In this document: positions 629 through 64,000 of the stretch, piece by piece
Layout of the letters: the number at the start of each line of letters is the position of its first letter
How positions within the stretch are numbered: position 1 is the stretch's first letter
From: an uncultured Gemmatimonadaceae bacterium
GTDB taxonomy: Bacteria; Gemmatimonadota; Gemmatimonadetes; Gemmatimonadales; Gemmatimonadaceae
Length of the DNA stretch: 64,000 bases
Direction of reading: 5' to 3'
Assembly: GCA_963829055.1 (NCBI GenBank)
Contig: CAWHHI010000005.1
Span: 128,001 to 192,000, forward strand
The notes under the pieces: model-generated
Seen by the model: only the letters and a program-made list of their open reading frames with translations
Database searches by the model: none
What the model was told of the DNA's origin: nothing
Position numbers and translations under genes: made by a program

Positions 629-1687
629 GATCTGCACTCGCTCCGCGATCCGTCCTGTCTCCACCAGCTCACGCAACTCCTCGCCTAACGCCGCACTCGC
701 ATCCACGACTCCCTGCCAGCGACGCATCCGCTCCGTCTCCGGCATCGAGTAGAAGTCGCGCCGGTCAGGAATCTTGCCGCCCGGCAGCGACGCGACGAAC
801 GCGTCCGACGGCGCGATGAGCAACGCGCGGCGGAAGTTCGACGCGCCCGCACGGCGCCAGCGCATCGACTTGTCGAACCAGCCCGGCACGATGTGTGAGT
901 AGAAGTGCGGGTACAGTACCAACCCCGCGCCGGCGCCGAAGTCGAGATCGAGGTGGTAATCGAGCACGCCGCCGTCCCAGTGCAAGCCGCTGCCCGCACC
1001 CGGAATGCGCACACCCTCCACGAGCAGCGGGATCGCCCCCGAGGCGACCAGCACGTCGCGCAGATTCTCCCGCGTCAACGCCGCGTGCCGCGTCGGGAGA
1101 TCGGACAGCTTCGTGAACGGCGAATCCGCGCCGGCCGAATGGAAGATCCAGCGTCGCATCTGGAGCGCGAGCGTTCGGCGACTGACGAAGTTTCCCGCTA
1201 TCGCCACCGCCAGGCCCGCGGCGAGCAACGCGCGGCTCCCTCGTCCGGCGAGCCCTCGCCCCTCGGCCGTGATCACGTGCACGCGCGCCCACGGATGGCT
1301 CAGGATCTCGTCCACGCCCGTGGGGCCGAGCAGGAGATCGAGCGCGCGGCCGAGGACGGCGCCGACTTCCGCGGGGGACGGCTTCGGCGTATACCGCTGC
1401 TCATAGATGTACGCCTGATGTCCGCGGCCTAACGCGGCGATGGGATCGCGCTGCGCGAAGCACGCCATGCGCCAACTGCCGATGGATGACCCGATGAGAT
1501 GCATCGGCCGCGTCCTCGGCTGCTGGAGCAGCTCGCCGAACAGGTAGCGATCGAGCCCCGCGATCGCGAGCCACTTGGCACCCCCCGAGGCTCCGGGAAT
1601 GACATCGACATCCTCGGCGCGCAGCCCGCGCTCGCGAATGATTCGATAGGCCTCGGCGCCTGCCAGCAGGGTGAGCGTACGCATCAC
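620..1687 (-). CDS. Patatin-like phospholipase family protein
   Basis: Gly-rich GASGG, nucleophile motif GSSIG and DGG motif (WDGGVLDYH). Intact 355 aa ORF. Confidence 0.85.
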   Translation of the reverse strand: MMRTLTLLAGAEAYRIIRERGLRAEDVDVIPGASGGAKWLAIAGLDRYLFGELLQQPRTRPMHLIGSSIGSWRMACFAQRDPIAALGRGHQAYIYEQRYTPKPSPAEVGAVLGRALDLLLGPTGVDEILSHPWARVHVITAEGRGLAGRGSRALLAAGLAVAIAGNFVSRRTLALQMRRWIFHSAGADSPFTKLSDLPTRHAALTRENLRDVLVASGAIPLLVEGVRIPGAGSGLHWDGGVLDYHLDLDFGAGAGLVLYPHFYSHIVPGWFDKSMRWRRAGASNFRRALLIAPSDAFVASLPGGKIPDRRDFYSMPETERMRRWQGVVDASAALGEELRELVETGRIAERVQIWD

Positions 1688-1737
1688 TCAACCTAGCTGG
1701 CATGCCTGCAACAGTGGTTTGGATCGTCCATGCCAGC

Positions 1738-1898
1738 GACTGCTTCGGCAAGCCATCTCAGACGAAGGGCGAACGGATCCGGCGGATAAACCGGATTGAC
1801 TCCCACGCGGGACGGATGCTGAGCAATAGGCCGAATCAATCCGGCCGATCCGGCGAATCCGTTCGCTCCCCCTGTCTGAGATGGTTGCCGAAGCAGTC
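1738..1898. repeat. Palindromic MITE-like element, family B (CATCTCAGAC...GTCTGAGATG)
   Basis: gactgcttcggcaagccatctcagac pairs with gtctgagatggttgccgaagcagtc; inner arms also pair. Related copies at 39363, 55876 and 60069. Confidence 0.85.
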
Positions 1899-1949
1899 CC
1901 TGACGTCCTCCGGGTCCTCTGCGGTTGGTGCTGTTGGTGTTGCCGTGGC

Positions 1950-4302
1950 TCAGTATCTGTACGCTTGGAGTCCAATGCGAACCGTGCGTGGCAGCCCATA
2001 CGAGATGAGCGTGTTCGCGCCGGTGCCCGCGAGATTGATCTGATACTGCGTATCGCCGATGTTCTCGACCGACACGAAACCCGCGATCCCGCGCACGAGC
2101 TCGCGCTGCACGTTCGCGTCCACCACCGTGAACGGGTCGAGCCAGACGCCCTGCAGCGTCGTCGTGTGACCCTCGTGACGCCAGATGCCCGTCCACGTGC
2201 CGAACATCCTCGACGCGTACGTCGCGCGGATCGTCTGCTTGGGCGACGGCACGCGGTTGATGTGCGCGCCGACCACCGTCCCTGGTGGCCCCGACACCAC
2301 GCGCGCGTCGTCGTAGTTCACGCTGCCGCTGATGAACAGCTGCCTAACGGGGCGCAGCGCGAGGTACGCCTCGCCGCCCTTCGACCGCGATTCGTTCACG
2401 TTGAGCCGCTGGCGCGTCACCGGCGGACCGGCCGAGATCTGCACCGGAACGTTGAAGTTGTTGTAGTCCGCGACGTACCACGTGCCCTTGAACTGCATCC
2501 AGTCCGCTGGCTGCCAGTCGAGCCCGACTTCACGACCGAACGCCGTCTCCGGCTTGAGGTCGGGATTCGGGATCGTGACCTGCGTGGCAGTGATCTGTTT
2601 CCGATACAGCTCGGCGAGATTCGGCGCGCGGAACGCCTTGTACAGGGCTCCGTGGAACGACAGCGTCGGGATCAGCTGATACCTGACGCCTATCCGCGGC
2701 GAGAACTCGTCTTTCTGCTGTCCCCATAGTCCGTCGTGCCGAGCGTGGCGTCCACCGTGCGGCCGTTGTTGTTGCCCCAGTGATCGAAGCGCGCACTCAG
2801 CTCCACGCGCACCGGCGTGATCGGCGCCGCGATCGCCTGCACGAACGCGCCGCCCAACGCCTGATCACCACCGGACCAGATCGTCCGCACGACGTTCCCG
2901 CAGTTCGCGGTGGGGCACACCGTGTTGAGGTCCACCTCGTCGAACGCGCCGTTCATGTGCCGATAGTCACCACCGACGCTGAACGATTCCAGATGCCAGG
3001 CCCCGTGCGCGTCCATACAGCGGAGGCGCCCCAGTCATGACTCGGGATGTCCGCGACGACGCTCGAGTCCTCGCACTGGCGCGCCGCGGTGGACGGTGTC
3101 GGGCACGTCGCCGAAAGCACGCGGATCGATGACGAGCGCTGATGCTCATCCTGCCGACCGTCCCACGCGCGGAATGAGAGCAGGCCGCTCGTATACGCGC
3201 CGTAGTCCGCACCGAAGCTCACGTCGCCCTGTTCGCGCGTCTGATACGACAGCGGTGTCCCGGTATCGCGATTGTCGCCGAACAGGTGACCCGTCACGAA
3301 TGCGGAGAATTTCGCGGACGGGGTGTAGTTGAACCGGCCGTACACGTTGCGCTGGATGATCTCGGATCGCTCATCGACCGCGCCGCGCTTCGCCGAATCG
3401 AGGAGCGTGTATCCGCCGCCGTCCTGGTAGTCTCCGCTGAGATACGCGTTGACCGGGCCGTAAATCGGAACGCCGGCCGCCGCGAACACGTGACGCGTAT
3501 CGCGACTGCCGCCTTCGACGGTCATGTTGACCGCGCCGGGCGCGAGCGGGCGCGAGAAGAACGAGATCACGCCGCCCATGGCGCCGTTGCCGTACAGGCT
3601 CGACGTCCCGCCCTCGACGACCTCGACGCGATCGAGCATGCCCTTCGGCACGCGCCCCCAATCGATCCATTCCCCCCACGCGTCATTCACAGGGATCCCA
3701 TCGAACAACACGACCGTGCGCCCTTCGTCGACGCCGCGGATCGACACGATCTGCGCGGTACCGCCGACGAGACTGCTCGTGCGCGGGAGCTCGACGCCCG
3801 GAATCTCGCGCAGGAGATCCTGCGACTCGCGCGCGGGGCTCGTCTGCACGTGCTCCGGCGTCAGGACGTTCACCGTCGAAGCGACCTGCGACGCCTCGGT
3901 GGGTGTCCGCGTCGCCGTGACGATCACACTCGACAGCATGAGCGAGCCGGGCTCGAGCTGCGCGTCGAGCGACGCGGTCTGACCGGCGACTACGTCCACG
4001 CTTTTCCGCATGGGCTTGTGGCCGATCGCGGTGACCAGCACCTCGTAGCGTCCGGGGGAAAGATTGCGAAGTGTGAACCGACCGTTCGCGTCGGACACAA
4101 CCACGCGCTCGGGTGACTCGACGGCGATGCGAGCGCCCATCACGGAGCGGTGGTCGGCGGATGTGATGACACCGCGGATCGAGCCATCGCCCTGCGCGTG
4201 AGCCGCGACGGGCCAGCCGAGCAAAACGAGGCTTAGGAAACGCGCAACTGAGCGCGAGAACAGTGAGCGCGAGAAGAACGAGCGTACAATGAATGTCGAC
4301 AT
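1950..4302 (-). CDS. TonB-dependent receptor with N-terminal carboxypeptidase-regulatory-like domain (frameshifted in this assembly)
   Basis: Signal peptide, VIVTATRT, plug motifs (SIRG...VLFDGIP; RVEVVEGGTSSLYGNGAMGGVI) and C-terminal VENIGD...GLPRTVRIGL. Split over ORFs 2953-4302, 2690-3016, an intermediate frame and 1950-2498. Confidence 0.85.
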
Positions 4303-4363
4303 GTTGAATGGGTTCGGGTTGCGACGGTCGGAATGATACGAGCGGTGCTGCGCGACTGTTGAT

Positions 4364-4510
4364 TGTCATTCCGAGCGGAGCCGCGAAGGCCGCAGTCGAG
4401 GAATCGAGACCGTACGGTAGAGAGCCCTCTATCCGGACGATCGCGATTCCTCGACTGCGCGTCCGCTACGCGGCGCTCCGCTCGGAATGACAACCTCGCT
4501 CGGAATGACA
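4364..4510. repeat. REP-like palindromic element, family A1 (TGTCATTCCGAGCG...CGCTCGGAATGACA)
   Basis: Terminal inverted repeats, inner agtcgaggaatcg/cgattcctcgact pair, and a duplicated right end. Close relative at 36217-36372. Confidence 0.9.
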
Positions 4511-4559
4511 ACCGGCATAGATTCACGTCGCGGTTCACCCATCTACCGACATCCAGCAC

Positions 4560-4570
4560 TGGTCAGACCA
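4560..4570. promoter_or_regulatory. Candidate FadR/GntR-type operator TGGTCAGACCA
   Basis: Perfect 5-1-5 palindrome in the divergent region between the TonB receptor and the ABC ATPase. Confidence 0.4.
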
Positions 4571-4575
4571 CTGGC

Positions 4576-5289
4576 TTGACCCCTCGGCTCTCAGTCGACC
4601 GCCTGCACAAGCGCTTCGGCCAGATCGAAGCGCTTCGCGCCGCGACGTTCCGCGTGGAGCACGGCGAAGTGCTCGGCCTGCTCGGGCCTAACGGGGCTGG
4701 CAAGAGCACGCTGCTCGCCTGTCTCGCCGGCCTCCTGCATGCGGACGGCGGCCAGGTCCTTGGCGCCGATGGTCGCGCAATCGAGCCGGCGCGTCGCCGA
4801 GATGCGTTGATGTATCTGCCGGACGGCATCGCGCCGTGGCCGGATCAGACCGCGAGCTGGATCCTCGAGTTCTGGCGCGTGATGACGGGCGCGCGCGCCG
4901 ATGGTTGGGAGGCCATCGCCGACGTCCTCGGGCTGGCCGAGCTGCGTGGGCGGCGTATCGGCACACTGTCGAAGGGCGAGCGCAAGCGCGTACTGCTCGG
5001 TCTGGCGCTGGCGTCACCGCAGCCGGTCGTGCTCATGGACGAGCCGTTCGACGGGCTCGACCTGCGCCAGACGCGCGCGACGATCGCGATGTTCCGCGAG
5101 CTGGCGCGTGAAGGGCGATCGCTGGTGCTCTCGATCCACTCGATGCCTGACGCCGCGCGCGTCTGCGACCGGCTCGTGCTGCTGAACGACGGCAGCACGA
5201 TCGCCGAAGGGACACTGCCGGAGCTGCGCGAGCGTGCGGGACTCGCGGCCGGCGCCGACCTCGAGGACGTGTTCCTTGCCATCGCCTAA
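4576..5289 (+). CDS. ABC transporter ATP-binding protein (ABC-2 type)
   Basis: Walker A GPNGAGKS, signature LSKGERKR, Walker B LMDEP, H-loop. TTG start at 4576 is inferred because the longer ORF runs through a repeat. Confidence 0.9.
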   Translation: MTPRLSVDRLHKRFGQIEALRAATFRVEHGEVLGLLGPNGAGKSTLLACLAGLLHADGGQVLGADGRAIEPARRRDALMYLPDGIAPWPDQTASWILEFWRVMTGARADGWEAIADVLGLAELRGRRIGTLSKGERKRVLLGLALASPQPVVLMDEPFDGLDLRQTRATIAMFRELAREGRSLVLSIHSMPDAARVCDRLVLLNDGSTIAEGTLPELRERAGLAAGADLEDVFLAIA

Positions 5290-5305
5290 CGCTGTCGGCG
5301 TGGGA

Positions 5306-6623
5306 ATGCGATGGCGGTGGCTCGCCGCCAAGGAGTGGCGCGAGCTCGTGGCATCGCGCGCGATGCTGGTGTTCGCGTTGTGTCTCGGGCCCCTCGTGGG
5401 ACACGCGTTCGCGACGGCGGTGGACGTCTATGGCGAGGCGAGCGGCGCCGGCGGTGGACCTGCCGCGCTCGCGCAGGGGCTGAGTCCACTCGACGGCATC
5501 GTCGTGCCGACGTTCGGCGCGTACGCGATCGCGGCGATGCTGCTGTTTCCGTTCGTCGCTATTCGCGCGGTCGCGGCCGAGAAGGAGAGTGGCGCGCTGT
5601 CGCTGCTCGTGCAGAGTCGAGTGAGTCTCGGCACGATGATCGTCGTGAAGTTCGTCGTGCTGCTCGGCGCGTGGATCCTGGCGTGGGTGCCCGGCGTCGT
5701 CGCGCTCGCGATGTGGCGCGCGAGTGGCGGCCATCTGTACTCACCGGAAGTCGCGACGGTGTTCGCTGGCCACGTTATGCGCGGCGCGCTCGTCATCGCG
5801 CTCGGCCTCGCGGCGGCGGCCGTCACTGACGGCGCGGCGAGCGCCGCGGTGCTGACGCTCGCCGTCACGCTCGGCACGTGGGCCCTGGATTTCATAGGGC
5901 AGGTGCGTGGCGGCACGGCGATGAGCCTCGCGCGGTTCACGCCCGACTCGGCGCTCCGCGTATTCGAGCACGGCGAGCTGCGGCTCGATCTGCTGCTCGC
6001 GACCGCGGCGATCATCGCCGCGCTGCTCGCGTTCACGGTCGTGTGGCTTCGGCCGGCACGGCTCGTTCGCGCGCGTCTCGGGATAACGGCGGCGGTCGTT
6101 ACTCGCTGCGGCGCTCGTGTGTGTGGCGTCCGCGCGTGTAAGCACGAGTTGGGACATGAGTGAGGATCGACGCAGCTCGTTCGCCGCCGCGGATGAGGCG
6201 TTGCTGCGAACGATCCACGCGCCGCTCTACGTGACCGCGCATCTCGCACCGGAGGATCCACGTCTCGCCGACCTCGAGAGCGGTGTGTTGCGCAAGTTGC
6301 GGCGGACGCTGCCGGCGGTGCACGTGGACTACGCGGCTCGCGGCGCCACGGGACTCTTCGAAGGCTCGGCCGCGCGGTACGGCGAAGTCGTGTATCGCCT
6401 GAACGATCGCGAAGCGATGACGCGATCGACCACGGTGCCGATCGTGCTCGAGACCATCTATGGACTCGCCGGCCTGACGCCGCCAACGGCTGGCGCCGCG
6501 GACGCGTATCCCGGGTACCCGCACGTCGCGCACATCCGGCTGATCGCGCCACTATTCTACGTGCTCTGGCCCGTCGCGGTGCTCGTGATGTGGTGGACGT
6601 CGCGCCACCGTCGCCGCGCGTGA
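5306..6623 (+). CDS. ABC-2 permease fused to a GldG-like extracytoplasmic domain (one frameshift near 6100)
   Basis: Multi-TM ORF 5234-6163 (AAEKESGAL motif) continues into ORF 6117-6623 (SWDMSEDRRSSF..., C-terminal TM). Confidence 0.75.
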
Positions 6624-6658
6624 GATTCTACGGCTCGAACCCGCTCCTCCATCTCGCC

Positions 6659-7432
6659 ATGTTGAACTCGTCGAACCATCGCCTTCATCGTTGGCCATTC
6701 GCGCTGCTCGCGGGCGTCGTTCTCACAACGAGCGCGCGCAGTGCTCAGGCTCAGGCGCAGGCCGCGTCAGGCACCGCTGCGCGTCCCATTCGCGTGGATG
6801 TGGCGCGCGACAAGGTCGGGGCCGAGCCGTCCACGTTCGTACCGATGGTGGGCAACTGGGTCGTCGCGGATGAGGAAGGCAAGAAGGTCGTGATGGCTGA
6901 CGGGCGCGAGTGGAAGCGCGGTCAGCCGGCCGGCGGTCTCGCCGACAAGGCGCGCGCGATCTACGGCGCGAGACATGAGGAGTTCATCGACAACGTGAAG
7001 GCGTTCGCGTACTTCCCGATCGCCGTCGCGAAGGGGATCGATGACTTCCAGAACGGCGAGATCTCCGTGCGGTTCATGATGGTCGGCGGCACGCTCGACC
7101 GGTGCGCCGGCATTCTGTTCAACGTCAAGCCTAACGGCGACTACCTCACGGTTCGGTTCAACGGCACCGAGGACAACGTGGTGCTGTGGACGTTCAACGA
7201 GGGGAAGCGCAGCTTCGTGAAGCGCGCGCCGGAGAACGTGCCGCTCGAGCTCGGGACGTGGCACGAGCTCAAGATCGCGGTGCACGGGACGCAGCTGCAG
7301 GGGTTCCTCGACGGCAAGGCGCTGCTCGACTACACGCTGAAGGAGCCCGTCTCTGGCAAGGTCGGTCTGTGGTCGAAGACCGATAGCATGACGGAGTTCG
7401 CCGATTTCACCGTCACGCCGGCGGCGCGATGA
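6659..7432 (+). CDS. Secreted ConA-like / DUF1080-like beta-sandwich protein
   Basis: Signal peptide, AGILF, WHELKIAVHG...GFLDG, GKVGLW. Strong coding codon bias. Confidence 0.6.
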   Translation: MLNSSNHRLHRWPFALLAGVVLTTSARSAQAQAQAASGTAARPIRVDVARDKVGAEPSTFVPMVGNWVVADEEGKKVVMADGREWKRGQPAGGLADKARAIYGARHEEFIDNVKAFAYFPIAVAKGIDDFQNGEISVRFMMVGGTLDRCAGILFNVKPNGDYLTVRFNGTEDNVVLWTFNEGKRSFVKRAPENVPLELGTWHELKIAVHGTQLQGFLDGKALLDYTLKEPVSGKVGLWSKTDSMTEFADFTVTPAAR

Positions 7433-8114
7433 GCACGCGACCTGGGTCACACCTAACGCGTGCGGCTGTGATCGCGCTGGTCGCCGCGGCACCTCTCGCT
7501 GCGCAGGCGTCGAAGTCGGCGAAGTCCGAAAGCTGTCCCGCGGTGGACACGAAGGCGGGCTGGTACGTGAAGCAGCGCGCGTGGGCTGAGTGACTCGAGT
7601 CACGCGTGGTCGAACGATTCGCTGCGGACGGCGCTGATCCACGCTGCCGGCGCTCGACAACGCCAACGGCGGAACCGGCGCGCTCATGGGCTACGAGATC
7701 GTGGGAGCGACGCCTAACGCTGCACAGGGGGATGCGGCGACGGCGATCGCCGCGTTGCGCACGCTCGCCCAGACTCGCGGGTCGACGTGGCCGACGAAGT
7801 CGGTCGTTGGCGCGGAGGGAGTGCGGGCAGTGTGGGTGCTCGCGGGCCAGGACACGTCACTCGCGCGCGCGGCACTGCATCGGATGATGGAAGCGGGCCC
7901 GGAGGAATCCCCGCCGGCGGCGGTCGCGATTCTCGAAGATCGCCTGCGGATCGCGTCTGGCCGGAAACAGATCTACGGGACCCAGCTAGTGAAGAGCGCG
8001 GACGGCAAGCTCGAGCCGGCGCCGCTGGAGGACCCGAAGCACGTGGACCTGCGTCGCGACGCGGCGGGTCTGCCGCCGCTGGCGCAGGCGATGTGCGCGG
8101 CTTCGAGGCCGTAG
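7429..8114 (+). CDS. Secreted DUF6624-like protein (frameshifted)
   Basis: ATG overlaps the upstream TGA. C-terminal part has WP..S.VG..G..AVW.L, LEDR.RI..G.KQIYGTQ and VD.RR...GLPPL. Confidence 0.65.
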
Positions 8115-8139
8115 GAAGGAGGCCTGAGGAAGGAGATCA

Positions 8140-8245: not shown

Positions 8246-8256
8246 ATGTTCCCCGC

Positions 8257-17295: not shown

Positions 17296-17408
17296 CCTGG
17301 CAGTCTCCGTCGAAGCAACGACCTGATGGTGCGCGTCAGGCCTCACTCATCGACTATGTCGCCCGCATCGACGGAGCGCCAGCTCGATTCTCTTCGAATC
17401 GTTTCCCG

Positions 17409-20400
17409 TTAGGGGTTTCCTTTCGACGCGCGGTCGATCGGCGCCGGGCGCGGTACGCGCTTGAACGGGTTCTGCTCGAGCAGCTTCATCGCCTCCTGCA
17501 CCGCGCGCTCGAGCTGCGGGTCGCGACCCTTGATCACATCGGCCGCCGAGTATTCGACTTCGATGTCGGGCTTGATGCCTTCGTTCTCGACCGACCACTT
17601 CCCGTTCAGGTCGTAGAACGCGAGACCCGGGGCGGTGATGCCGCCGCCGTCGATGGTCTGCGGAACTCCGAGCGTGCCGACGAGACCGCCCCACGTTCGC
17701 GTGCCCACGACCGGCCCGAGCTTGCGCTGCTTGAACATGTACGGAAGTGCATCGCCACCCGAGCCGGCGGACTCGTTCACGATCATCACCTTCGGTCCGA
17801 AGATGCCGGCCGACGGCGACGTGATCGTCTTGCCATCGCGCCTCGCGAAGAAGCCCATGAGCTTTCGATCGAGCTCGTTCACGATGTAGTCGGCGACCTG
17901 GCCGCCCTGGTTGTATCGCTCGTCGATGATCGAGCCTTCCTTCTGCTGCTGGGCGTAGAAGTAGCGCGTGAAGTACGTGTATCCGCCGCCCGCCGTGTTA
18001 GGCAGCCAGACGTACGCGAGCCGTCCATTCGACAGCGAGTCCACCAGCCGCCGATTGTTCTCCACCCACGCTCGGCTCCGGAGCCCGTCCTCGGTCGCGA
18101 CTGGTACGACGGTCACGAGCCGCGAACCTTCAGCGGAAGGCGTCTTGCTGACGCGAATGATCGTCTGGCGATTCGCGGTGCCCTCGAACGCCTTGTAGAT
18201 GTTGCTCGGCGGCGTGATCGGCGCGCCGTTCACCTCGAGCAGATAGTCGCCGTTGGCGACCTGAATCCCCGGTGCGCTCAACGGGGCGCGGAGGTCGGGA
18301 TTCCAGTTCTCGCCCGAGTAGATGTGTTTGATGCGATAGTGACCGTTCTCGATCGTGTAATCGGCGCCGAGCATGCCGACGCTCACCGGCGGGTCTGCGG
18401 GCACGTCGCCCGGTCCGGTCAGATACGAGTGTCCAACGACGAGCTCACCGGCTGCCGTCGCGATGAGATAGCCAAGGTCATCGCGGTGTCCGACGTACTG
18501 CACGAGCGGGCTGTACTTCGCCCACACCGCGTTCCAGTCGGCGCCGTGCATCTTGGCGTCATAGAAGTACTCGCGCTGAATGCGCCACGTCTCCTTGAAG
18601 ATCTGCGCCCACTCGGCGCGCGGATCGACGTACGCCTCGATCGTGCGCCACGGTGATCGGACCGTCGCCGACGCGTGCCGGACGATCGCTCGGGACGACG
18701 CCCCAGCGTCCGCCGTCGGGCCGCCGCCGGCCTGATAGAGGAGTTTCTTCCGGTCGCCCGAGAGCGAGTACGAGCGAATCCCTTCGATGAACGGCGTGGC
18801 CGCGCGATCGCGCAGCACGTAGCGCTGTACCCGGAACGCGCCGGCGCCGCCCGGCATCGGCTCGGCGTAGAAGAACGAGCCGGCCGGGCCGGCGGTGAGA
18901 TTGCTGTAGTCCGCTGGCGGAACGGCGATCGACAGCACGCGCTGTGTGATGCCGGCGACGTCGATGCGCGTCGGGGATTCGGGGCGCGGACGCGGAGTGG
19001 CCGGGGCAGCCGCGGCAGCCGGCGGCGGGCTACCAGCCGCCGGGGGACCACCAGCTGCCGGCGGACCACCGGCGTTAGGCGGCGGCGCTGGCGTGCCCGC
19101 TTCGTCGCCCGCTTCGGGAAGCAACGGCGACGGCTCGGTGGCCGAGAGGACGATGAGATAGACGGAGCGGCGAACGGGACGATCGGTGGAGCTCATCTCG
19201 AGCCAGCCGACGTTAGGCCCGAAGTTCGTGCTGGCGAGGAAGTAGAGATACTTGCCGCTCGCGTCGAATGCCGGCGAGATCGCGTCGGACAGACCGTCGG
19301 TCAGCTGATGCGCTTTGCCGTCGGCGAACGAGTACACGAAGATCGCGCGGAGATGATTGTCCAGGTTCTTCGAGTACGCGATCCAGCGCGAGTCGGGGGA
19401 CCACACGGGGTCGAGTCGTGCGGCCCGGATCGTCGAACGTGTCGGAATCGATCTTCGTCGCCTTGCCTGACGCGACGTCGAGCGACCAGAGATTGAGATG
19501 GTTGTCCTGGAACGAGAGCTGCTTGCCGTCTGGCGACCACGCGAGCTCGGACGGGTACGCGACCGACGGCAGCGTGACGGCGCGCGGTTTGGCGATGCCC
19601 GTCTGCTCGCCGATCATGAGCTGGTATTCGCCGGTCGCGTCGGAGAACCACGCGAGCTGCGATCCGTCTGGCGACCACACAGGATCGCGATCGTTCACGG
19701 CGGTGCTGCGCGTGACGTTGCGGTAGTCGCCTTTCTCGACCGGGACGGTGAAGATGTCGCCGCGCGCCTCGAGCGCGACGCGCACACCGGTCGGGCGAGA
19801 GCGACGAGCTCCGAATCATGCCGGCGACGCGCTTGATTCCCGCGCGCGCCCACGGCAGATCGCCCGTCACGTCGATGTCGAGCCGGCGTGACTGTCCGGT
19901 CTTGGCATCGACCAGGTGGATGTAGCCGGCCTGCTCGTAGACGACCGCGTCCGGACCCGCCGACGCATTCGCGATGTCGAAGTCGTCGTGATGCGTGAGC
20001 TGCTTCAGCTCCTTCGTGTCGCTGTTGTACGAGAAGAGATTCGTGGTGAACGCGCGGTCGGACAGGAAGTACACCGTGTTCCCGATCCACATCGGATACG
20101 AGTCGTTGCTGTCGGTCCACGGCAGCTTCGTGACGGAGTTGTCCGCCACGTTCATCACGCGAATGGGATGCGTGCGGCCGCCGCGGTAGTGGCGCCATCC
20201 GCTCTGCTCGATCCAGCCGGGAAACATCACGGTGGAGACTTCCTCGTACGCGACGCGCTTCCCGTCAGCCGAGTAGGCACCCGTGTACGCGCGGGGCATG
20301 GGGAGCGTGTCCGGGAGCCCGCCGTCGAGCGCGATCGGAGAACAGGCGGAAGTACGACTGGTGCGGCGGGCTCAGTCGCGCCGAGCCGAACACGCACGCG

Positions 20401-23340: not shown

Positions 23341-23425
23341 CTACGGCGCCGGAGACGCGACGCCCCCGCCGACAAGACAGTGATCTCGAACGTCAAACAG
23401 CAGCGAGCAGCAGCCAGCAGCCAGC

Positions 23426-24253
23426 CTAACGAGACCGGGGAGAACGCGCGCGTGGCGCGGGCACGGACGACGCCGGGTCCCACGCATGCCAGCTCCCGCG
23501 TTCGCCAAGTTGCCCGATGACCCGGGACAACCGCGCGGCGGCGTTGCGCCAGTTCGTCTCCACCGACCGCTGCGCCAGATGGGCATCGCCGGCCGCGATC
23601 GCGCGGACGATCCGCTCGTGCTCCTTCACCGACGTCGGCAGCTCATCCACCAGCGCGCTAATGTACAAACGCGTGTAGCGCTCGATCTGCGGCTTGATCG
23701 ACCGGTGCAGGGCGAGTAGCCGAGGGCCGACGACGTCCTCCACGTAGGCCCGGTGGAACGCCTGATCGAGATCGAAGATCCGCCCGAACTCCCGCCGCTT
23801 CGACTCCGCCGCGAGCTCGCGGTTGATCTCGCGCAGCCGCGTGACGATCCGCTTGCGCCGGTCGTCCGGGAGCGATGCCGCCGTATGGGCCGCGAGCCCC
23901 TCGAGATGTCCGACGATGAGGATGATCTCACGGCCGTCGTCCTGCGTGAGCGGCGCGACGATGAGGCGCTGGTCCTGCCCACGCCCGACGGACGAGACAA
24001 ATCCCTCCTGCTGGAGCCGATGCAGTGCGCTGCGCACCGGCGTTCGACTCAATCCCAACCGTTCTGCGACCGCGCGTTCGGCAATGCGAGCGCCAGGCGG
24101 GAGATGCCCCCAGACAATGAGGCCGCGCAGTTCCTGATAGACGCGCGAGACCGTGTCGGACCGCCCGTCGGCTTCGACCGAAGGCGCGCTCGCGGTGGGC
24201 GGCGGAGGCGGTGCGGGTCTGCGCGCGGTGCGGCGCGGGGCCGAAGTCGACAC
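23426..24253 (-). CDS. GntR family transcriptional regulator (FadR/FCD type; GTG start inferred)
   Basis: VYQELRGLIVWGHLPPGARIAERAVAERLGLSRTPVRSALHRL HTH; FCD motifs LDQAFH and EHERIVRAI..GD. Confidence 0.9.
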   Translation of the reverse strand: MSTSAPRRTARRPAPPPPPTASAPSVEADGRSDTVSRVYQELRGLIVWGHLPPGARIAERAVAERLGLSRTPVRSALHRLQQEGFVSSVGRGQDQRLIVAPLTQDDGREIILIVGHLEGLAAHTAASLPDDRRKRIVTRLREINRELAAESKRREFGRIFDLDQAFHRAYVEDVVGPRLLALHRSIKPQIERYTRLYISALVDELPTSVKEHERIVRAIAAGDAHLAQRSVETNWRNAAARLSRVIGQLGERGSWHAWDPASSVPAPRARSPRSR

Positions 24254-43829: not shown

Positions 43830-44768
43830 GTGGCGTCGAACCGCACTCTGGTCGTCGGCACGCGCGGGAGCCCACTCGCGCTCACGCAGACCGCATCAGT
43901 CATCGACGCCCTGCGCGCGGCACATGCGGGGCTCGACGTGCGCGTCCAGCGCATCACCACGAAGGGCGACGTGCTGCGCGACGTGCCGCTCGCCACGTTA
44001 GGTGGCCGAGGGGTGTTCGTGGACGCGATCGAGGAAGCGCTGCGAGGGAAGGAGATCGACCTCGCGGTGCACAGCGCGAAGGACCTTCCGTCGCGCGTGC
44101 CGCCCGATCTGGCGATCGCCGCGTTCCTCGAGCGCACCGACCCGCGCGATGTTCTCGTGTCGCGCGCCGGGTCGTTAGGCGAGTTGCCGCTTGGTGCGCG
44201 CGTCGGCACGAGCAGCGTTCGTCGCGTCTCCGCCCTTCGTGCGCTCCGGCCCGACCTGGAAACGCCCGACCTCCGCGGCAACGTGGACACGCGCCTGCGC
44301 AAGCTCGACGCCGGTGACTACGACGCGATCGTGCTCGCCGGTGCAGGGTTGTTGCGACTCGGGCTCGAAGCCCGCGTGACCGAATGGCTCTCGGTCGACG
44401 CGATGCTGCCGTCGCCCGGCCAGGGCGCGTTGGCCGTGGAGGTCCGCGGCGACGATCCGGAAGTCTGGGATCTCGTGCAGCCACTCGCGCACTCGCCGAC
44501 CGCCATCGCACTCGCGGCGGAGCGCGGCTTCCTCGCGCGACTGGGCGCCGGATGCTCGGCGGCCGTCGGTGCGTACGGCACCGTCGGCGCTGACGGCCAG
44601 GTGACGCTGCGCGCGATGATCGGCGCGCCTGATGGCCGATCGGTGACAGGAACGGAGAGTGGCGCCGGTGCGTCTGCCGAAGCACTCGGAGAGCGGCTGG
44701 CCAACCGGCTGCTGGCTGCTGGCGGCCGCGAGATCGCGGCGGAAGGGCAGCGCTGGAGCGTCGCGTGA
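43830..44768 (+). CDS. hemC: Hydroxymethylbilane synthase
   Basis: GTRGSPLA, TKGD, DLAVHSAKD, GTSSVRR, RGNVDTRL, GQGALA, LGAGCS. Confidence 0.96.
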   Translation: MASNRTLVVGTRGSPLALTQTASVIDALRAAHAGLDVRVQRITTKGDVLRDVPLATLGGRGVFVDAIEEALRGKEIDLAVHSAKDLPSRVPPDLAIAAFLERTDPRDVLVSRAGSLGELPLGARVGTSSVRRVSALRALRPDLETPDLRGNVDTRLRKLDAGDYDAIVLAGAGLLRLGLEARVTEWLSVDAMLPSPGQGALAVEVRGDDPEVWDLVQPLAHSPTAIALAAERGFLARLGAGCSAAVGAYGTVGADGQVTLRAMIGAPDGRSVTGTESGAGASAEALGERLANRLLAAGGREIAAEGQRWSVA

Positions 44769-45582: not shown

Positions 45583-46604
45583 GTGAGCGACTTGGAAACC
45601 TTCTGGACGACAGGCGAAATCACACCTCGGGCGCGGCCGCGACGCCTGCGCCGGACCGCCGCGCTCCGCGACGCGTTAGGCGAGACGACGCTCCGGCCCG
45701 CGCAGCTCGTCCACCCGATCTTCGTGCGCGATGGCGCCGACAGCGAACGCCCCATCGCCAGCATGCCCGGGCACGCGCAGCGGACAGTCGATCGGCTCGA
45801 CGCGGAGATCGGCGAGGTCGACGCCCTCGGCATCCGATCGGTGCTGTTGTTCGGCATCCCGGACACGAAGGACACGACCGGATCGGGCGCCTGGGACCCG
45901 TCCGGCCCAGTGCCGCGGGCGATCGCGGCCATCAAGCGCCGCAGTCCGTCGATCACCGTCATCGCCGACGTCTGCCTGTGCGAGTACACGTCGCACGGAC
46001 ACTGCGGGCTGCTGAGTGACGCAACGGGCGTGGTCGCGAACGACGAGACGCTTCCGCTGCTCGGCCAGGCCGCGGTCGCCTACGCTGACGCTGGCGCCGA
46101 CGTCATCGCGCCGAGCGCGATGATGGACGGGCAGGTCGCGTCGATCCGTGCCGCGCTCGACGCCGCCGGCCACAGCGACGTCGCCATCCTCGCCTACGCG
46201 GTGAAATACGCTTCCGCGTTCTACGGCCCGTTCCGCGAAGCGGCGCAGTCCGCGCCCTCGTTCGGCGACCGGCGCGCCTACCAGATGCAGGCAGGCAACG
46301 CGCGTGAGGCGATACGCGAAGCTCGCCTCGACGAGGAAGAAGGCGCGGACATGCTCATGGTGAAGCCCGCCGGCCCGTACCTCGACATCATTCAGCGCGT
46401 GCGAGCCGAGTCGCGGCTTCCACTTGCCGCGTACCAGGTGAGCGGCGAGTACGCGATGCTCAAGGCGGCGGCGGAGCGTGGATGGATCGACGAGCCGCGC
46501 GCGGCGATGGAGAGCCTGCTCGGCATCCGCCGCGCGGGAGCGGATCTCGTCATCACGTACTACGCGAAGGCGGCAGCGCGCTGGCTGGCCGAGGGCGTGC
46601 AGGC

Positions 46605-53988: not shown

Positions 53989-53989
53989 A

Positions 53990-55870: not shown

Positions 55871-55875
55871 CCGGG

Positions 55876-56194: not shown

Positions 56195-56219
56195 CTTGGT
56201 CCTCGCTTCGTATGCGGAT

Positions 56220-58587: not shown

Positions 58588-58588
58588 G

Positions 58589-58931
58589 TCACCCGGGCTG
58601 TTTGGTCGCCGTGATCACCTTGGTGATCGCCGCAGCGTACTGCACCCAGCTCTCACTCTCGGCGCGGAGCGTCCGTCGCCCTTCCGGCGTGAGCGTGTAG
58701 AACTTGGCTGTCGATTGCTTCTCGGAGGTGCCCCACCGCGACTCGATCAGCCCCTTGTTCTCGAGGCGGTGCAGCGCTGGATAGAGCGACCCCTCCTCGA
58801 CCTTGAGGGCATCGTCCGTGGTGTCCTGAATCCACTGGGCGATGGCGTAGCCGTGCATTGGACGCCACGACACGGTCTTGAGAAGCAGCAGCTCGAATGG
58901 CGCCGCGCTTGAATGGCAGCTCTGCGGACAC
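58589..58931 (-). CDS. PadR family transcriptional regulator (ADOP-associated; frameshift near the start)
   Basis: LLLLKT...PMHGYAI, EEGSLYPALHRLE..G, FYTLTPEGR; adjacent to the ADOP start. Confidence 0.9.
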
Positions 58932-59065
58932 GAACGTCCTTCCCCTTGATTTGACAGGGGAACAATGCGCGCACATACATAGATTTGCAAGGGGTCGTAT
59001 CTGCGCGACTTCCGGAATGCCGGTCCCAAGCACAACGGCGAGCCCGGGCGTGGCGTATCGCCATC

Positions 59066-60052
59066 ATGGTCATCCCGCGCCGCCGAGGCGCCGCCCGACG
59101 ATGGCTCGACGCCCTCGGCGCTCCCATGCTGTTCCTCGCGCTCACCGCGTGCGCGACGCTGCGGTCGAATCGGCCGCTGACCAATGCGGCCATGGGCAGA
59201 ACGACGCGCCACACGCTCGTCGTCGGCAGCCGCACGCGGAGCTTCTACCTGCGGCTGCCACCGGCGTTCTCCGCGTCACAGCGCTACCCGCTGCTCGTGC
59301 TCCTGCACGGACACAACAGCAACGGCGCGAACGTCCTGCGACAGTCGCGACTGGAGCCAGCGGCGGACAAGCACGACGTCATCGTCGTCGCGCCTAACGG
59401 GACCGGGCGCTTCTCTCGCTTCGGCCTCACGTGGAACGCCGGCACGTGCTGCGGCTCCGCGCAGTCGCAGCACGTGGATGATGTCGCCTTTCTCGAGACG
59501 CTCATCGACACACTCGCCGCCGAGTTACCGGTGGACCGTGCGCGCGTCACGATCGCGGGCTTCTCCGCCGGCGGCATGCTCGCGCTCCGCGCCGCGTGCG
59601 ATCACAGCGCGATCGCGTACGCGTTCGTGAACGTGCAGGGGACGATGCCCGATACGACGTGCGCGCCGTCGCGCCCGGTGTCCATGCTGCTCATCGCCGG
59701 CGATGAGGACGAGGACATGCGCGAGGAGCACGCGGAGAACAAGCGGCACAACGGTCACGCGTTCGCCATCTCGGCCTCGGGGACCCTCCGGTTCTGGGCG
59801 CGTCACAACGGCTGCGACCCGGAAATGCCATCTCACGAAGGCCACGAGTACACGGAGTACCCGGCCACCGGCTGCGCGTCAGGCACGGTGACGCGGCTCA
59901 TCGTCGTGCACGGACATCCGCACGCGTGGCCCGGCGGTCGTCGCAGTTGGTGGCTGGCGCCGTCGCCGAACCCGGACGTGAGCGCCGATCAACTCATCTT
60001 CGAGTTTCTCGCTGCGTCGTCGCCGCATGACAGGGCGCCGATCGCGCGGTAG
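59066..60052 (+). CDS. PHB-depolymerase / LpqC-like esterase (possible lipoprotein)
   Basis: PLLVLLHG, WNAGTCCG, VDDVAF, AGFSAGG nucleophile, HAWPGG; LTAC lipobox-like sequence. Confidence 0.82.
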   Translation: MVIPRRRGAARRWLDALGAPMLFLALTACATLRSNRPLTNAAMGRTTRHTLVVGSRTRSFYLRLPPAFSASQRYPLLVLLHGHNSNGANVLRQSRLEPAADKHDVIVVAPNGTGRFSRFGLTWNAGTCCGSAQSQHVDDVAFLETLIDTLAAELPVDRARVTIAGFSAGGMLALRAACDHSAIAYAFVNVQGTMPDTTCAPSRPVSMLLIAGDEDEDMREEHAENKRHNGHAFAISASGTLRFWARHNGCDPEMPSHEGHEYTEYPATGCASGTVTRLIVVHGHPHAWPGGRRSWWLAPSPNPDVSADQLIFEFLAASSPHDRAPIAR

Positions 60053-60068
60053 CGGTCGTCACTCGAGC

Positions 60069-60146
60069 GCAGCCATCTGTCTCGTATTCGGAGTCAATCC
60101 GCTAGATCAGACGAATCCGTTCGCGTTTTTCGTCTGAGATGGCTGC
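60069..60146. repeat. Family B right-arm copy
   Basis: tgtctcgtattcggagtcaatccgc...atccgttcgcgt..cgtctgagatg matches 39529-39592. Confidence 0.85.
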
Positions 60147-60605
60147 CGCGTCCGGCCAGGCTATCCGAGCATCGGACGCATTCGACCAAGTAGGGACCCA
60201 CTGCCGTGAGTCCTCACGGCCACGTCGCAAGGCCTCCGCGCCTGACGCCGCTCGACCCGGAAGACGACGCCCAGCCTACAGTCCCCGGCCTAACGAGATG
60301 CGGATCTGACGCGACTCGACGGGATGGAAGTGAACGTCATCCGCGCCGCCCGTTAGGCCTCGGCGCACGCGCCCCTGTCTCTCGTCGGGCTCCAGGCTGG
60401 TCTCATGGTCCGACGTCTGTCTCATGATTGCTTGCCCAACTGTCCAACATGGCCTTACCTTCGTTCGCCGCCGAATGTTTACCACCGCCGGTCGTACGGC
60501 GTCGAGTCCATGAAGGTAGCTGCTCGAATACCGTCGATCAGTGAGATCGCGGGCCCCGCTGTTACCGCCGCTCGGCCACGGATCAAGGATCGGAAGGAGC
60601 CCGGA

Positions 60606-62141
60606 ATGAAGAAGGGACATGGCGCGGACGGCGATTCGACCGCGTTGTCGGATCCCGACAACCTGTACCGGCTGCTGGTCGAGAGCGCGCGCGATTACGC
60701 GATCTTCGCGCTCGACACCGCGGGTCGTGTATTGAGCTGGAACACCGGCGCCCAGCACCTCAAGGGCTACACGCGAGACGAGATCGTCGGGCGTCATTTC
60801 TCCGCCTTCTATCCGCCCGAAGACATTGCCGCGGGCAAACCGGACCGCGAGCTGACGGACGCGCAGCGCGACGGCAGTGTCGAGGACGAGGGCTGGCGCG
60901 TTCGCAAGGACGGGTCGCGGTTCTGGGCGAACGTCACGATCACGGCCCTTCGTGACGCATCGGGCGCCCTGATTGGCTATGCCAAGGTCACGCGCGATCT
61001 CACCGAGCGTCGTCGAGTCGAGTCCGAGCTGCGCGAGAGCGAAGAGCGCTACCGCGTCCTCGTTCAGGGCGTTCAGGACTACGCGATCTTCATGTTGGAC
61101 CCGGACGGACGCATTGCGAGCTGGAACGACGGCGCCCGGCGAATCAAGGGCTACGAACCCGAGGAAATAATCGGCCGCCACTTCAGCACCTTCTACCCGG
61201 CTGCGGACATTGCATCCGGCAAGCCTCCGTGGGAGCTCGAAGCCGCGGCCCGTGACGGGAAGTACGAGGAAGAGGGGTGGCGGATCCGGAAGGACGGCAC
61301 CTCGTTCTGGGCGAACGTGCTCATTACGGCCATGCGAGGGCGCGACGGAAGGCTGATCGGCTTCACCAAGGTGACACGCGACCTCACCGAGCGGAAAGCT
61401 GCTCAGGAGCGCGCGATCGCCGACGCGCGGCGCATCGCCGAAGCCGAGGCGGCGAGCCGCACGAAGAGCGAGTTCCTCACGTCGATGTCCCACGAGTTGC
61501 GCACGCCGATCAACGCCACGCTGGGTTATGCCGAGCTGCTCGTGATGGGCATCGGCGGCCCGACCACGGCGCAACAGCGCGAATACCTCGAGCGGATCCG
61601 CGGCAGCCAGGAGCATCTGCTTCGCGTCATCAACGACCTGCTCAACTACGGCCGGATCGAAGCAAGTCGGATGCAGTACGACATCACGACCATCCCGCTC
61701 CACAGCATCATAGAGACGGTGTTGCCGATGGTCGCCCCGCAGGCTCGGGCAAAAGCACTCCAGGTGACCCACGCAGCGTGCCCCGCGACGTTGACCGTGC
61801 GCGCCGACCGCGTGAAGGTGGAGCAGGTCGTCCTGAACCTGGTCTCGAACGCCGTCAAGTTCACGACGCGCGGCGGACACGTGACCGTCTCGTGCGCCGA
61901 GCGTGACGATCAGGCTGTGATCGCGGTGACCGACACCGGGCCGGGGATCCCCGCTGAGAAACACGCCGCGATCTTCGAGCCGTTCGTGCAGCTGGGCCGG
62001 ACCCTGACGAGCGGACACGAAGGCACCGGCCTCGGGCTCGCGATCAGTCGCGACCTCGCGCGTGCCATGGGTGGGGACGTCACCGTCGTCAGCACGCTCG
62101 GCCGCGGGTCGACGTTCACCCTCGCGCTCCCGCGCGCCTAA
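60606..62141 (+). CDS. PAS-PAS sensor histidine kinase
   Basis: Two PAS/PAC repeats (DYAIF.LD..G....WN.GA; RKDG..FWANV), MSHELRTP, N box, DTGPG, GTGLGL. Confidence 0.93.
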   Translation: MKKGHGADGDSTALSDPDNLYRLLVESARDYAIFALDTAGRVLSWNTGAQHLKGYTRDEIVGRHFSAFYPPEDIAAGKPDRELTDAQRDGSVEDEGWRVRKDGSRFWANVTITALRDASGALIGYAKVTRDLTERRRVESELRESEERYRVLVQGVQDYAIFMLDPDGRIASWNDGARRIKGYEPEEIIGRHFSTFYPAADIASGKPPWELEAAARDGKYEEEGWRIRKDGTSFWANVLITAMRGRDGRLIGFTKVTRDLTERKAAQERAIADARRIAEAEAASRTKSEFLTSMSHELRTPINATLGYAELLVMGIGGPTTAQQREYLERIRGSQEHLLRVINDLLNYGRIEASRMQYDITTIPLHSIIETVLPMVAPQARAKALQVTHAACPATLTVRADRVKVEQVVLNLVSNAVKFTTRGGHVTVSCAERDDQAVIAVTDTGPGIPAEKHAAIFEPFVQLGRTLTSGHEGTGLGLAISRDLARAMGGDVTVVSTLGRGSTFTLALPRA

Positions 62142-62159
62142 CGCCGACGGCCCGGCGGC

Positions 62160-64000
62160 CTAACGCGGTGCCGACGACGCCGGCTGCGTGGAGCGCGGCA
62201 GGATGAGCGTGAACGTGGACCCCTCGCCCGGCACGCTGTCCACGACCAGGTCGCCGCCCATCCCGCGAGCCAGGTCGCGACTGATCGCCAGCCCGAGCCC
62301 AACACCGTCGTGCGGCCGATTCAACGTGCGATCGACCTGCACGAATGGGTCGAACACCGTCCGTGCGCGGTCTTCCGGAATGCCGACGCCCGTGTCGTGA
62401 ACGTGAACCCGCGCCTCGGTATCCGTGGCGCTGCAACTCACCGTGATGCTCCCGCGCTCGGGCGTGAACTTGATCGCGTTCGAGAGCAGGTTGAGCACGA
62501 CCTGCTGGATCTTGTCGTGGTCCGCATGCGCCGTGAGCAACGGGTCACACGCCGCGTAGCAGTACCGCAGCGCCTTCGCCTGCACCTGCGGCGCGATGAC
62601 CGCCTCGAGACCCGACAGCGCCGCGTCGAGCGAGACGTCCTTCCAGTCGTAATGCACCTGCCCCGCGTCGAGCTTGGCGAAGTTCAACACGTCGTTGACG
62701 AGCGTCAGCAACCGCTGCTGGCTGCGGGCCGTTCGCGCCAACGCCTCGGTTTGCGCGGGAGTCACAGGACCGTGAATGCCGAGCGCGATCAGCTGCACGT
62801 AGCCGCCGATCGCGTTGAGCGGTGTGCGCAGCTCGTGGCTCATCACCGCCAGGAAGTCGCTCTTCGCCTTGTTCGCCAGGTCCGCGGACGCCTTCGCCTC
62901 GAGCAACTGCGCGTTGGTCTGCTCCAGCTCCTCCGCCACTGTCTGCGCCTCTTCGACCTGCGCTTCCAGCTCGTCGTGCGTCGCGCCGATCTCCTGACGC
63001 ATGCGGTTGAACGTCTTCGCCAACCGAGCCACTTCATCGCGGCCGCTGTCATTCACCGGACGCGAGTAATCGCCGATCGCGAGCCCCTCGGCCGCCGCCG
63101 ACAGCGCAGCAAGCGGTCGCGTGATCCGCTTGCTGATCGAGCCATGATGCCCCGGCACTCACGATGACAAGGAGCAGGCTGAATAGGCCGAGGCGCATCA
63201 TCGTGGGCGCGTGAGCGTGCCGCGATCACGTCGGTGGGCAGTTCGAGGCTGATGGCCCAGGGTGTCCCCGCGATGGCCGCCTGCGTCACCATGAGATCGC
63301 CGACGCCTGGCCTGGACGCCGTAGATAGCGTATCCGTGGTCGCCTGTCCTTCGGCGCGGCGGCCGGCATCCCGCCCAGCGTCGACCAGAACGACCCGGCG
63401 CGGTTTCTGAAATAGCCCGTCACGTCTTCGCCAATCAGGTCGCGCAGTGCCTGGGACGCCTGGGGACCTCCTGTAACGCGATGCTGCTGTGTGATGTACG
63501 CCGATGCGCTCCCCGTTCTCGTAGATGGGCAGCGCGATCTCGAAGAACACTCGGCCGTGCGATACGTAGAACTCGCTCACACGCGCGGAGTCTGCTCGTG
63601 GCGTGACGTTGTCCGCGGTGCGGCTCGACGCGACCTCGGGCGGTGCCGCTTCAGTCACGGACAGCGAGTCTTTGCCAAGGCGTAGCAGGCGGCGTCCGGC
63701 CGCACTCCAAAGCTCGATTGGCAGCCCGGAATCGGTGGCGGCGGTCAGGCGATCCAGGGCGGTCCGCGCTGCAGCGAGTATCGCGGCGTCCACGGCTGGG
63801 CTCGACGGTTGGCCAGACGTGTTCGAGCGGTTGGAATCCGTCGCGCTCCGGAGGAGCCGCCGTATGGCGGAATCGCTCGCGACCGCATGCTGCAGTACGG
63901 CGCGCTGCTCCGCCCCTCGCGCGACCGAGGTGGCCAGTTGCTGCGTGGCGCGGGCGAGTCGAACCGCCACCGCGTCCCGGGCCGATCGCGTCAACGTGCG
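62160..64000 (-). CDS. Membrane HAMP histidine kinase, 5'-truncated by the window edge (frameshifted)
   Basis: ITRPL..L HAMP, MSHELRTPLN, NLLSNAIKF, DTGVG, GVGLGL; periplasmic part lies in ORF 63053-63994. Confidence 0.88.

Follow-up and report, generated by a model that had tools for sequence, protein, structure and literature searches.

A stretch of 64,000 nucleotides from an uncultured Gemmatimonadaceae bacterium (contig CAWHHI010000005.1, positions 128,001 to 192,000; referred to here as the window) carries about once per kb the word GCCTAACG, and selection or drive acts on this 8-bp DNA word itself, in chromosome, megaplasmid and phage DNA. In the window, the core CCTAAC or its complement GTTAGG is present at 65 sites (39 on the + strand and 26 on the - strand; mean gap 961 bp), whereas 4.4 are expected from an order-2 Markov model. 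The base following the core is G at 57 sites, A at 7 and T at 1, the base preceding it is G at 50 of the 65, and for CCTAACG the base composition predicts 7.2 copies. CCTAAT and CCTAAG occur once each in the window, and GCTAAC, ACTAAC and TCTAAC are absent. An earlier note, made from the letters of this stretch, had reported the same number of sites, strand split and following bases, together with an expectation of about 7 for CCTAACG and about one copy each of CCTAAT and CCTAAG; these figures are borne out, and all 12 coordinates quoted in it are occupied by the word. The strand bias, which it had called weak, is not significant (p=0.14). Its wider interpretation, viz. a signal maintained at the DNA level, specific to a lineage and lacking the polarity of Chi or the FtsK-orienting polar sequences (KOPS), is upheld by the results given below, whereas the methyltransferase-linked site, which it had also put forward as an option, is not; its options of an uptake sequence and of a nucleoid-protein site keep some probability. 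The identity with integron ends and the presence in phages, both described below, go beyond that note.

The genome that holds the window (G000; 7.78 Mb in 20 contigs, 86% complete) contains 7,103 CCTAAC sites, of which 5,004 are GCCTAACG, and every contig carries the sites at 0.75-1.22 per kb; CCTAAA, CCTAAG and CCTAAT, which differ from the core by one letter, occur 50-144 times each. The signal is therefore described here as an 8-mer with a strict 6-bp core, CCTAAC, and graded flanks. Under a null in which every protein is preserved and the codons are drawn by context (3 simulations over our own calls of 8,086 genes, made with a Markov model), 35 copies of CCTAAC and 10 of GCCTAACG are expected in the coding DNA of G000, while 4,801 (136x) and 3,426 (about 340x) are observed; the enrichment thus survives the codon-preserving comparison that the earlier note had proposed. 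The coding sites are read as Pro-Asn (1,414), x-Leu-Thr (833), Val-Arg (607) and x-Leu-Gly (1,947). All six frames and both orientations are used, as are stop codons, the word being present in 366 of 985 TAA and 270 of 1,981 TAG stops, and by our gene calls the five stop codons cited in the earlier note all lie within it. The codon pair CCT-AAC, with its 1,414 occurrences, has a synonym, CCT-AAT, that is found 9 times, and the 8-mer fills 58% of the x-Pro-Asn-x slots compatible with it. Variants of the 8-mer with one mismatch in the core occur about as often as expected, except for GCATAACG (3.2x) and two others at about 2x. The end bases follow a graded preference (5' G>A>C>T; 3' G>A>C/T), almost all sites having at least one G, and such graded flanks around a strict core resemble the specificity of a binding protein. 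Some effect on the encoded peptides may also exist, Pro-Asn being in excess by 1.40 (reverse 1.21) and ALG by 1.20 (reverse 0.93), and [ATSP]LG occurring 2.9 times per 1,000 in orthologues from word-rich genomes vs 1.7 times in those from word-poor genomes. A telomere-like reading of CCTAAC was also considered and was dropped because the flanks are G and not C.

The sites are also retained over evolutionary time. In same-genus orthologues, whose wobble positions are saturated (about 50% identical), of the 68 sites whose amino acids are conserved, 47 are shared, compared with 66 of 409 occurrences of the same rare codons outside the sites. No sites are shared with word-poor relatives, the orthologues of which are often two bases away from the word, so that no single mutation creates it. 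The possibility, raised earlier, that the word is a base-calling artefact is excluded because it is dense in a polished isolate replicon (NZ_CP007129.1), in named assembly contigs and in independent contigs of run X2. Two window sites, 45675 and 49580, are identical letter for letter in contigs of that run that are free of differences, as judged by 40 of 297 difference rows.

Within genes of G000, 21, 50, 78 and 84 pairs are separated by 0-50, 50-100, 100-150 and 150-200 bp, respectively, as against 162, 162, 152 and 155 when the sites are redealt among the compatible slots within genes. This deficit vanishes by 300-400 bp and is alike whether the two sites lie on the same strand, converge or diverge. 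Another site closer than about 200-300 bp is disfavoured or contributes little, and orientation has no bearing on how the sites act; from this we infer that a single site serves a few hundred bases in either direction. The spacing is more even than random. Gaps below 100 bp number 214 of 7,083, and of the 56 pairs within 30 bp 4 are convergent; among these gaps and pairs no class of close inverted sites resembling terminator pairs was found, nor was there a genome-wide excess of convergent pairs or a 10-11 bp phasing of the sites. Two rRNA regions of 1.6 kb and 6 kb contain 0 sites, the density climbs from 0.62 to about 1.0 per kb with the GC content of third codon positions, and it is lower in atypical genes. 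Of six site clusters found, the five that were examined marked no obvious reader gene.

If the word were a Chi site of an AddAB/RecBCD-type enzyme, then it should be polar. It is an asymmetric 8-mer, as Chi is, and it is enriched in phages, as Chi can be (PMC3784561). However, the sites divide 2,212 vs 2,358 by the GC-skew strand, showing no replichore bias, whereas the control word GGGNAGGG tracks GC skew in the same 71 bins (rho 0.66; for the word, rho is -0.27, p=0.02), and pairs of opposite orientation are depleted as much as those of the same orientation. The nuclease domain PF12705, which serves as a proxy for AddAB-type enzymes (RecC was not searched), is found in 10 of the 27 genomes rich in the word and in 16 of the 23 poor in it. 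Hence, this explanation is largely refuted and retains a very small probability. Within the genus g54, an AddAB-like helicase-nuclease pair is present in 4 of 4 word-poor and 0 of 4 word-rich genomes (the contrast being of G065, G147, G175 and G219 with G113, G253, G268 and G297), which also speaks against Chi, although this contrast fails in the family as a whole.

The distribution of the word bears upon the nature of what reads it. Among 301 genomes of the family, CCTAACG is present at 150 or more per Mb in 68 (up to about 1,850), at 50-150 in 13 and at less than 50 in 220; these values use rounded genome sizes, and 5 of the 220 word-poor genomes are unpublished, no claim resting on those. 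In a FastTree phylogeny (12 genes, 21 genomes, 4,025 columns, midpoint root) the word-rich lineages are scattered, g9 being placed next to the word-poor g11 (0.945), g45 next to g39 (1.0) and g53 next to g38 (0.948), and a rich pair is nested inside the genus g54. Raised counts of the word are also found in a second family (genus g102) and in two genera of a third, but among 201 sampled genomes of the phylum none beyond the order shows this, so that the lineage specificity claimed earlier is supported. Plasmid NZ_CP007129.1 of Gemmatirosa kalamazoonensis has 801 copies of CCTAACG vs 38 of the reversed control. Samples of 20 kb from word-poor genomes revealed no other word that stood out in its place. 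When 70 metagenome loci of at least 1.5 kb were considered, 23 passed the density filter, and most of the high-GC ones resembled G000 proteins; the named relatives of one, L519, are Gemmatimonadaceae only, while L536 and L588 could be assigned to no group, and an occurrence in unrelated soil bacteria was not confirmed by these loci. A separate metagenome contig, L527 (45% GC), repeats a seven-letter unit that includes the word, in short tandem runs. From the scattered presence we infer that one reader with one specificity was repeatedly gained or lost.

Such switching is of importance in considering whether the word is bound by a protein that organises the nucleoid, covers or loops 200-300 bp and takes no part in self recognition, and for which phages gain sites in order to obtain host-like organisation or transcription. 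The orientation-blind spacing minimum, the graded flanks and the occurrence on both chromosome and megaplasmid agree with this, and an architectural role has been proposed for the cyanobacterial word HIP1 (PMC5861425). However, a core architectural factor should not switch between sister genera or within g54, the sites lack the helical phasing looked for above, and their density ranges from 50 to 1,850 per Mb. We consider this explanation unlikely.

A third possibility is that the word, like HIP1, is made by repair directed by a DNA modification at CCTAAC. With its six bases, its asymmetry and an A in position 5, the core resembles the sites of bacteriophage exclusion (BREX) systems. The anatomy of HIP1, with a strict six-base core and deviations in the first and last base, is matched (PMC4390886). 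On the other side, the adenine methyltransferase families PF01555 and PF02384 have no match in G000 and do not track the word (5 genomes each), and PF00145 has no match in G000 and none in 3 of 5 word-rich genomes. The modifications poorly detected by SMRT (single-molecule, real-time) sequencing include 5-methylcytosine and those of the backbone, so that such marks may still occur at the word. The SMRT methylome of G. kalamazoonensis contains RGATCY, ATGCAC and CCAGN7TCA only (PMC3974934), and because this species carries the word and its motif list omits it, a methylated word is unsupported. Further, repair acting site by site does not predict a spacing deficit over 300 bp. This mechanism is quite improbable. 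The avoidance by phages expected of a restriction or BREX target is not seen, the word being enriched in the phage contigs recovered by a scan that finds word-bearing phages only. As an observation in its own right, G000, a 7.8 Mb soil genome recovered to 86%, is without a match to three DNA methyltransferase families.

The word is identical to the commonest ends of the integron recombination sites (attC) of this order. In the integron array of G000 (C20:119-207 kb), which has 15 attC-like hairpins, GCCTAACG forms 9 of the 15 left ends and CGTTAGGC 6 of the 15 right ends, and within G000 this array is the only place where paired inverted ends 50-150 bp apart (hairpins in an array near intI) were found. 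In word-poor genomes GCCTAACG or GCCTAACA forms 62 of the 116 hairpin ends (58 candidates from loci chosen for CCTAACG runs, some of them false and mostly from G027), and therefore the attC end is independent of the genome-wide word. Another 7 of the 116 ends are GTCTAAC, while GTCTAACG occurs 5 times in the genome vs 7.7 expected and is not enriched, which shows that the two specificities differ. It could be suggested that the dispersed sites are by-products of the integron integrase, i.e. scars or secondary sites, and the identity with the attC end is in accordance with this. But IntI exceeds the cut-off in 15 of 25 word-rich vs 15 of 21 word-poor genomes, the sites are in-frame substitutions that often differ by two changes from the codons of word-poor orthologues, and a variant used in attC is without enrichment genome-wide. 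In view of the lack of correlation with intI this suggestion is largely refuted and is the least probable of those considered here.

Some other observations concern the integrons. The integrase next to the G000 array (C20:208 kb; L100:18008-18985) barely passes the family cut-off and, going by what we take to be the catalytic positions, apparently lacks the catalytic Lys and the first His. Eight viral contigs (L651, L699, L678, L869, L871, L880, L890 and L913) contain runs of small genes between inverted GCCTAAC pairs, 25-110 bp apart, which are like phage-borne integron cassette arrays; L880 includes a DNA methyltransferase-like gene.

The explanation that deserves most consideration beside the one we favour is that the word is a DNA uptake sequence, for which a surface receptor of the competence pilus prefers GCCTAACG, perhaps having been tuned to attC for the capture of cassettes, and which spreads by biased uptake and recombination; we regard it as possible but rather unlikely. 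The word is non-palindromic, non-polar, present at about 1 per kb, evenly spaced, missing from rRNA and scarcer in atypical genes, all of which is expected of such a sequence. In Haemophilus influenzae, two uptake signal sequences (USS) within 100 bp do not raise uptake (PMC7811141), which fits the orientation-blind deficit. In Vibrio cholerae, transformation delivers integron cassettes (PMC12614218), and the attC ends match the word in word-poor genomes too. G000 possesses comEC, dprA, a pilMNOPQ cluster and pilins, although comEA and pilB are frameshifted in its assembly. However, competence genes are equally frequent in both classes of genomes (HHH_3/ComEA 46/46, PilM 5/5, prepilin motif 48/48, DprA 5/5), and the small proportion of gaps below 100 bp, together with the lack of a terminator-pair class, differs from H. 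influenzae, where 23% are within 100 bp. In one 20-kb syntenic block around comEC no gene is confined to word-rich genomes, the nearest case being comFB (10 of 11 rich vs 4 of 9 poor genomes). The comEA, pilB and AddAB-like genes of G000 are split into short frames at C12:492-495 kb and C15:11-16 kb, possibly through sequencing error or else through decay. Inspection by eye of 129 P-loop proteins of G000 revealed nothing distinctive.

The phages carrying the word are of special significance in this regard, as they bear directly on the choice between uptake drive and intracellular selection. Seven scans of viral contigs for site pairs gave at least 153, at least 155 and at least 64 loci of at least 4 kb, of which at least 7, at least 10 and at least 8 (the last with a GC filter) passed the enrichment filter; these include duplicates and cassette-like arrays, and flanking DNA was covered for up to 80 loci per scan. 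Five contigs, counted over 28-46 kb each, encode head or tail proteins of tailed phages (terminase, portal, capsid, tail), three of them with integrases, and their observed/expected sites are 49/3.4 (G479), 43/2.8 (G480), 59/5.6 (G481), 19/2.1 (G482) and 23/3.6 (G483). The flank rule in them is that of the host. The best DNA match of G479 among 291 genomes is a prophage of the word-rich G056 (76%, E=7e-89), and the terminase of G480 shares 67% identity, in a part of its sequence, with one of the word-rich G243, while that of G481 is closest (56-58%) to prophages of word-poor hosts. G483 (L244/L431; 70% complete) encodes a DNA polymerase of its own, a clamp, a primase and QueC/D/E-like proteins; its scanned proteins include no integrase, and the search with its polymerase named no host.

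The clearest example is L902, a contig of 7,109 bp (59.6% GC) encoding the virion proteins phrog_2941 and phrog_3287 and a lysozyme, which we take to be podovirus-like. It has 27 sites vs 1.7 expected (13 + and 14 -), all with at least one G flank, distributed over four reading frames and stop codons, with a smallest gap of 95 bp (p=1e-5). Its density, 3.8 per kb, compares with 2.08 in 120 kb of G014, the densest of the host DNA measured. A strain that is 90.5% identical, L932, keeps 26 of the 27 sites, where random six-mers survive at 57% (p=5e-6), and third positions differ between the two at 2 of 45 within sites and at 446 of 1,723 outside them; two sites are altered, and only to the second-best flank. 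These phages carry and conserve the word. In contrast, 78 relatives of L902 at 41-43% protein identity have 98 sites vs 222 expected, i.e. no excess. Biased uptake does not readily yield a phage with twice the top host density and purifying selection on its sites; in lambdoid phages, there is a precedent for exceeding the host density in the case of Chi (PMC3784561). No CRISPR-spacer-like match to L902 was present in 301 genomes. Prophages were detected in 1 of 68 word-rich vs 22 of 233 other genomes (p=0.035), or with both terminase queries in 2 of 68 vs 24 of 233 (p=0.083), a weak test in which kin are non-independent; uptake would accommodate this weak deficit.

Based on these results, we tentatively favour, with somewhat less than even confidence, the interpretation that GCCTAACG is an intracellular self tag, which is read by a putative sequence-specific protein binding double-stranded DNA and is mimicked by phages. 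A cytoplasmic reader, the gene for which would have been gained and lost among the Gemmatimonadales, would be expected to bind GCCTAACG over GCCTAATG. When bound, it may benefit the surrounding few hundred bases, either by shielding them from a host nuclease or by favouring them as a recombination donor, and sites would then accumulate wherever synonymous change permits. Phages of these hosts would copy the tag, some of them to saturation (one per about 250 bp). Less securely, the word may have been fixed on the attC end since incoming integron cassettes bear it twice, and the absence of dialects may be due to this. An unmodified, orientation-independent word derived from the attC end, recurring every few hundred bases for protection or use, with a horizontally moving reader and phage counterfeits under purifying selection, would constitute a new class of self/non-self system, a proposal we hold to be doubtful; such a system would be distinct from restriction-modification, Chi and uptake signals.

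A number of observations weigh against the self-tag interpretation. The reader protein was not found, and seven candidate classes failed to track the word. With 0.9 sites per kb, no more than an estimated quarter or so of the chromosome lies within 150 bp of a site, and therefore protection could not be all-or-none. The phage loci, having been picked out by their site pairs, are a selected set, and 0 sites occur in 7.6 kb at two terminase loci of word-rich hosts. The G056 prophage has a host-like density (48 sites in 60 kb vs 15 in the 20-kb flank), and G479, G481 and G482 are temperate and could therefore gain sites as prophages under uptake drive. L902 itself is a 7-kb fragment, the putative host of which is suggested only by a 35-44% remnant in the word-poor G292 and by one named Gemmatimonadaceae match (45%) among its 120, and the remnant shows that its family can integrate.

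In comparison to known systems, the word behaves in the host most like uptake sequences and HIP1, and in phages like Chi (PMC3784561, PMC4390886, PMC5861425, PMC13756078). With the DNA uptake sequences (DUS) of Neisseriaceae and the USS of Pasteurellaceae it shares asymmetry, a density near 1 per kb on both strands, the lack of replichore bias, even spacing, location within genes, exclusion from rRNA and perhaps some peptide effect (PMC1939737, PMC2817400, PMC7811141). It differs from them in being 8 bp without an extended flank or inverted terminator pairs, in that no alternative word was found in the 20-kb word-poor samples, in that a phage is denser than any host counted and in a peptide effect of 1.2-1.4x vs about 2x; this comparison is of sequence pattern, whereas the defining trait of DUS/USS is biased uptake by a surface receptor. 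HIP1 (GCGATCGC) of cyanobacteria is likewise an 8-mer in which soft ends surround a strict 6-bp core, and it too is over-represented, by about 100-fold or more, and conserved beyond the synonymous background (PMC4390886, PMC5861425). However, the word described here is not palindromic (GCCTAACG vs its reverse complement CGTTAGGC), no cognate methyltransferase or methylation was found for it in the genomes and methylome noted above, and it is patchy in one order, whereas HIP1 is near-universal in its phylum. Chi too is an asymmetric self word that is very dense in some phages (PMC3784561), but the present word is non-polar with orientation-blind spacing, and the AddAB-type nuclease domain is not found in 17 of 27 word-rich genomes; from KOPS it differs in having no polarity towards the terminus. 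The attC core site (GTTRRRY / RYYYAAC) is matched letter for letter in the ends discussed above, whereas the dispersed copies are single, unpaired, located in genes and stop codons, and show no correlation with intI. The word is thus not assigned to HIP1, Chi, KOPS or attC, as it fails a defining test of each, nor is it placed with DUS/USS.

Table 1. Sites of the word in the window (placement counts are based on our own gene calls, the first overlapping gene being taken)
Feature	Position	Strand	Details
Dispersed copies of the word, 65	683..62165	both (39 +, 26 -)	core CCTAAC, consensus GCCTAACG
Placement of the sites			49 in reading frames, 7 on stop codons, 9 outside called genes
In-frame sites			16 Pro-Asn, 8 x-Leu-Thr, 6 Val-Arg, 19 x-Leu-Gly
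GCCTAACG	683..690	+	antisense within a minus-strand gene, encoding Ala-Leu(TTA)-Gly
GCCTAACG	4686..4693	+	sense frame, Pro(CCT)-Asn(AAC)
GCCTAACG	5284..5291	+	gives TAA stop of gene 4576-5289
Flank variant CCCTAACG	17407..17414	-	gives TAA stop of gene 17409-19406(-)
GCCTAACG	23424..23431	+	complement gives TAG stop of a gene on the - strand that ends at 23426
Unfixed site	44173..44180	-	A>C at 44177 in a near-identical strain (run X2); lacking in aligned same-genus orthologues
Conserved site (Ala-Leu-Gly)	45674..45681	-	kept in 3 aligned same-genus orthologues; identical in an independent contig
Rare close pair, 22 bp apart	62136..62165	+	stop codons of two convergent genes

Some other features of these genomes were also noted. 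The intergenic regions of G000 contain a second repeat, unrelated to the word, with 606 copies of TGTCATTC vs 113 expected and 909 of CTCGGAAT vs 250 expected, which is probably a hairpin family resembling repetitive extragenic palindromes. The largest word-free stretches of G000 are situated at contig ends (C6:6854-55038, C11:7377-44055 and C6:591809-623330) and contain ordinary cellular genes, several of them frameshifted and, in the first two, many with second copies elsewhere; they probably represent chimeric or contaminant DNA rather than islands. Local excesses of other words were seen in the 14-21 kb loci L012 and L023, viz. GCTATC (20 copies, 6.2 expected) in a word-poor member of the Gemmatimonadaceae and GAATTA (20 copies, 4.1 expected) in a genome of the Chloroflexia.

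The genome-wide words known so far are few, viz. DUS/USS, HIP1, Chi and KOPS, and why HIP1 and the uptake sequences accumulate is still debated. The word described here is real and is a variant among such hyper-abundant genome words; no published description of it, including any of gemmatimonads with over-represented or uptake words, was found among the open-access papers listed (full texts without supplements). Since close relatives differ in having or lacking it, comparison should make the gene for its reader findable, and it occurs in a cultured species; the phage evidence provides a direct test of uptake drive vs intracellular selection. In addition, the word is a practical marker for the purity of genome bins and for the hosts of phages. 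If it is true that phages counterfeit a self tag of their hosts, this would point to a new defence or DNA-handling system in an abundant soil phylum.

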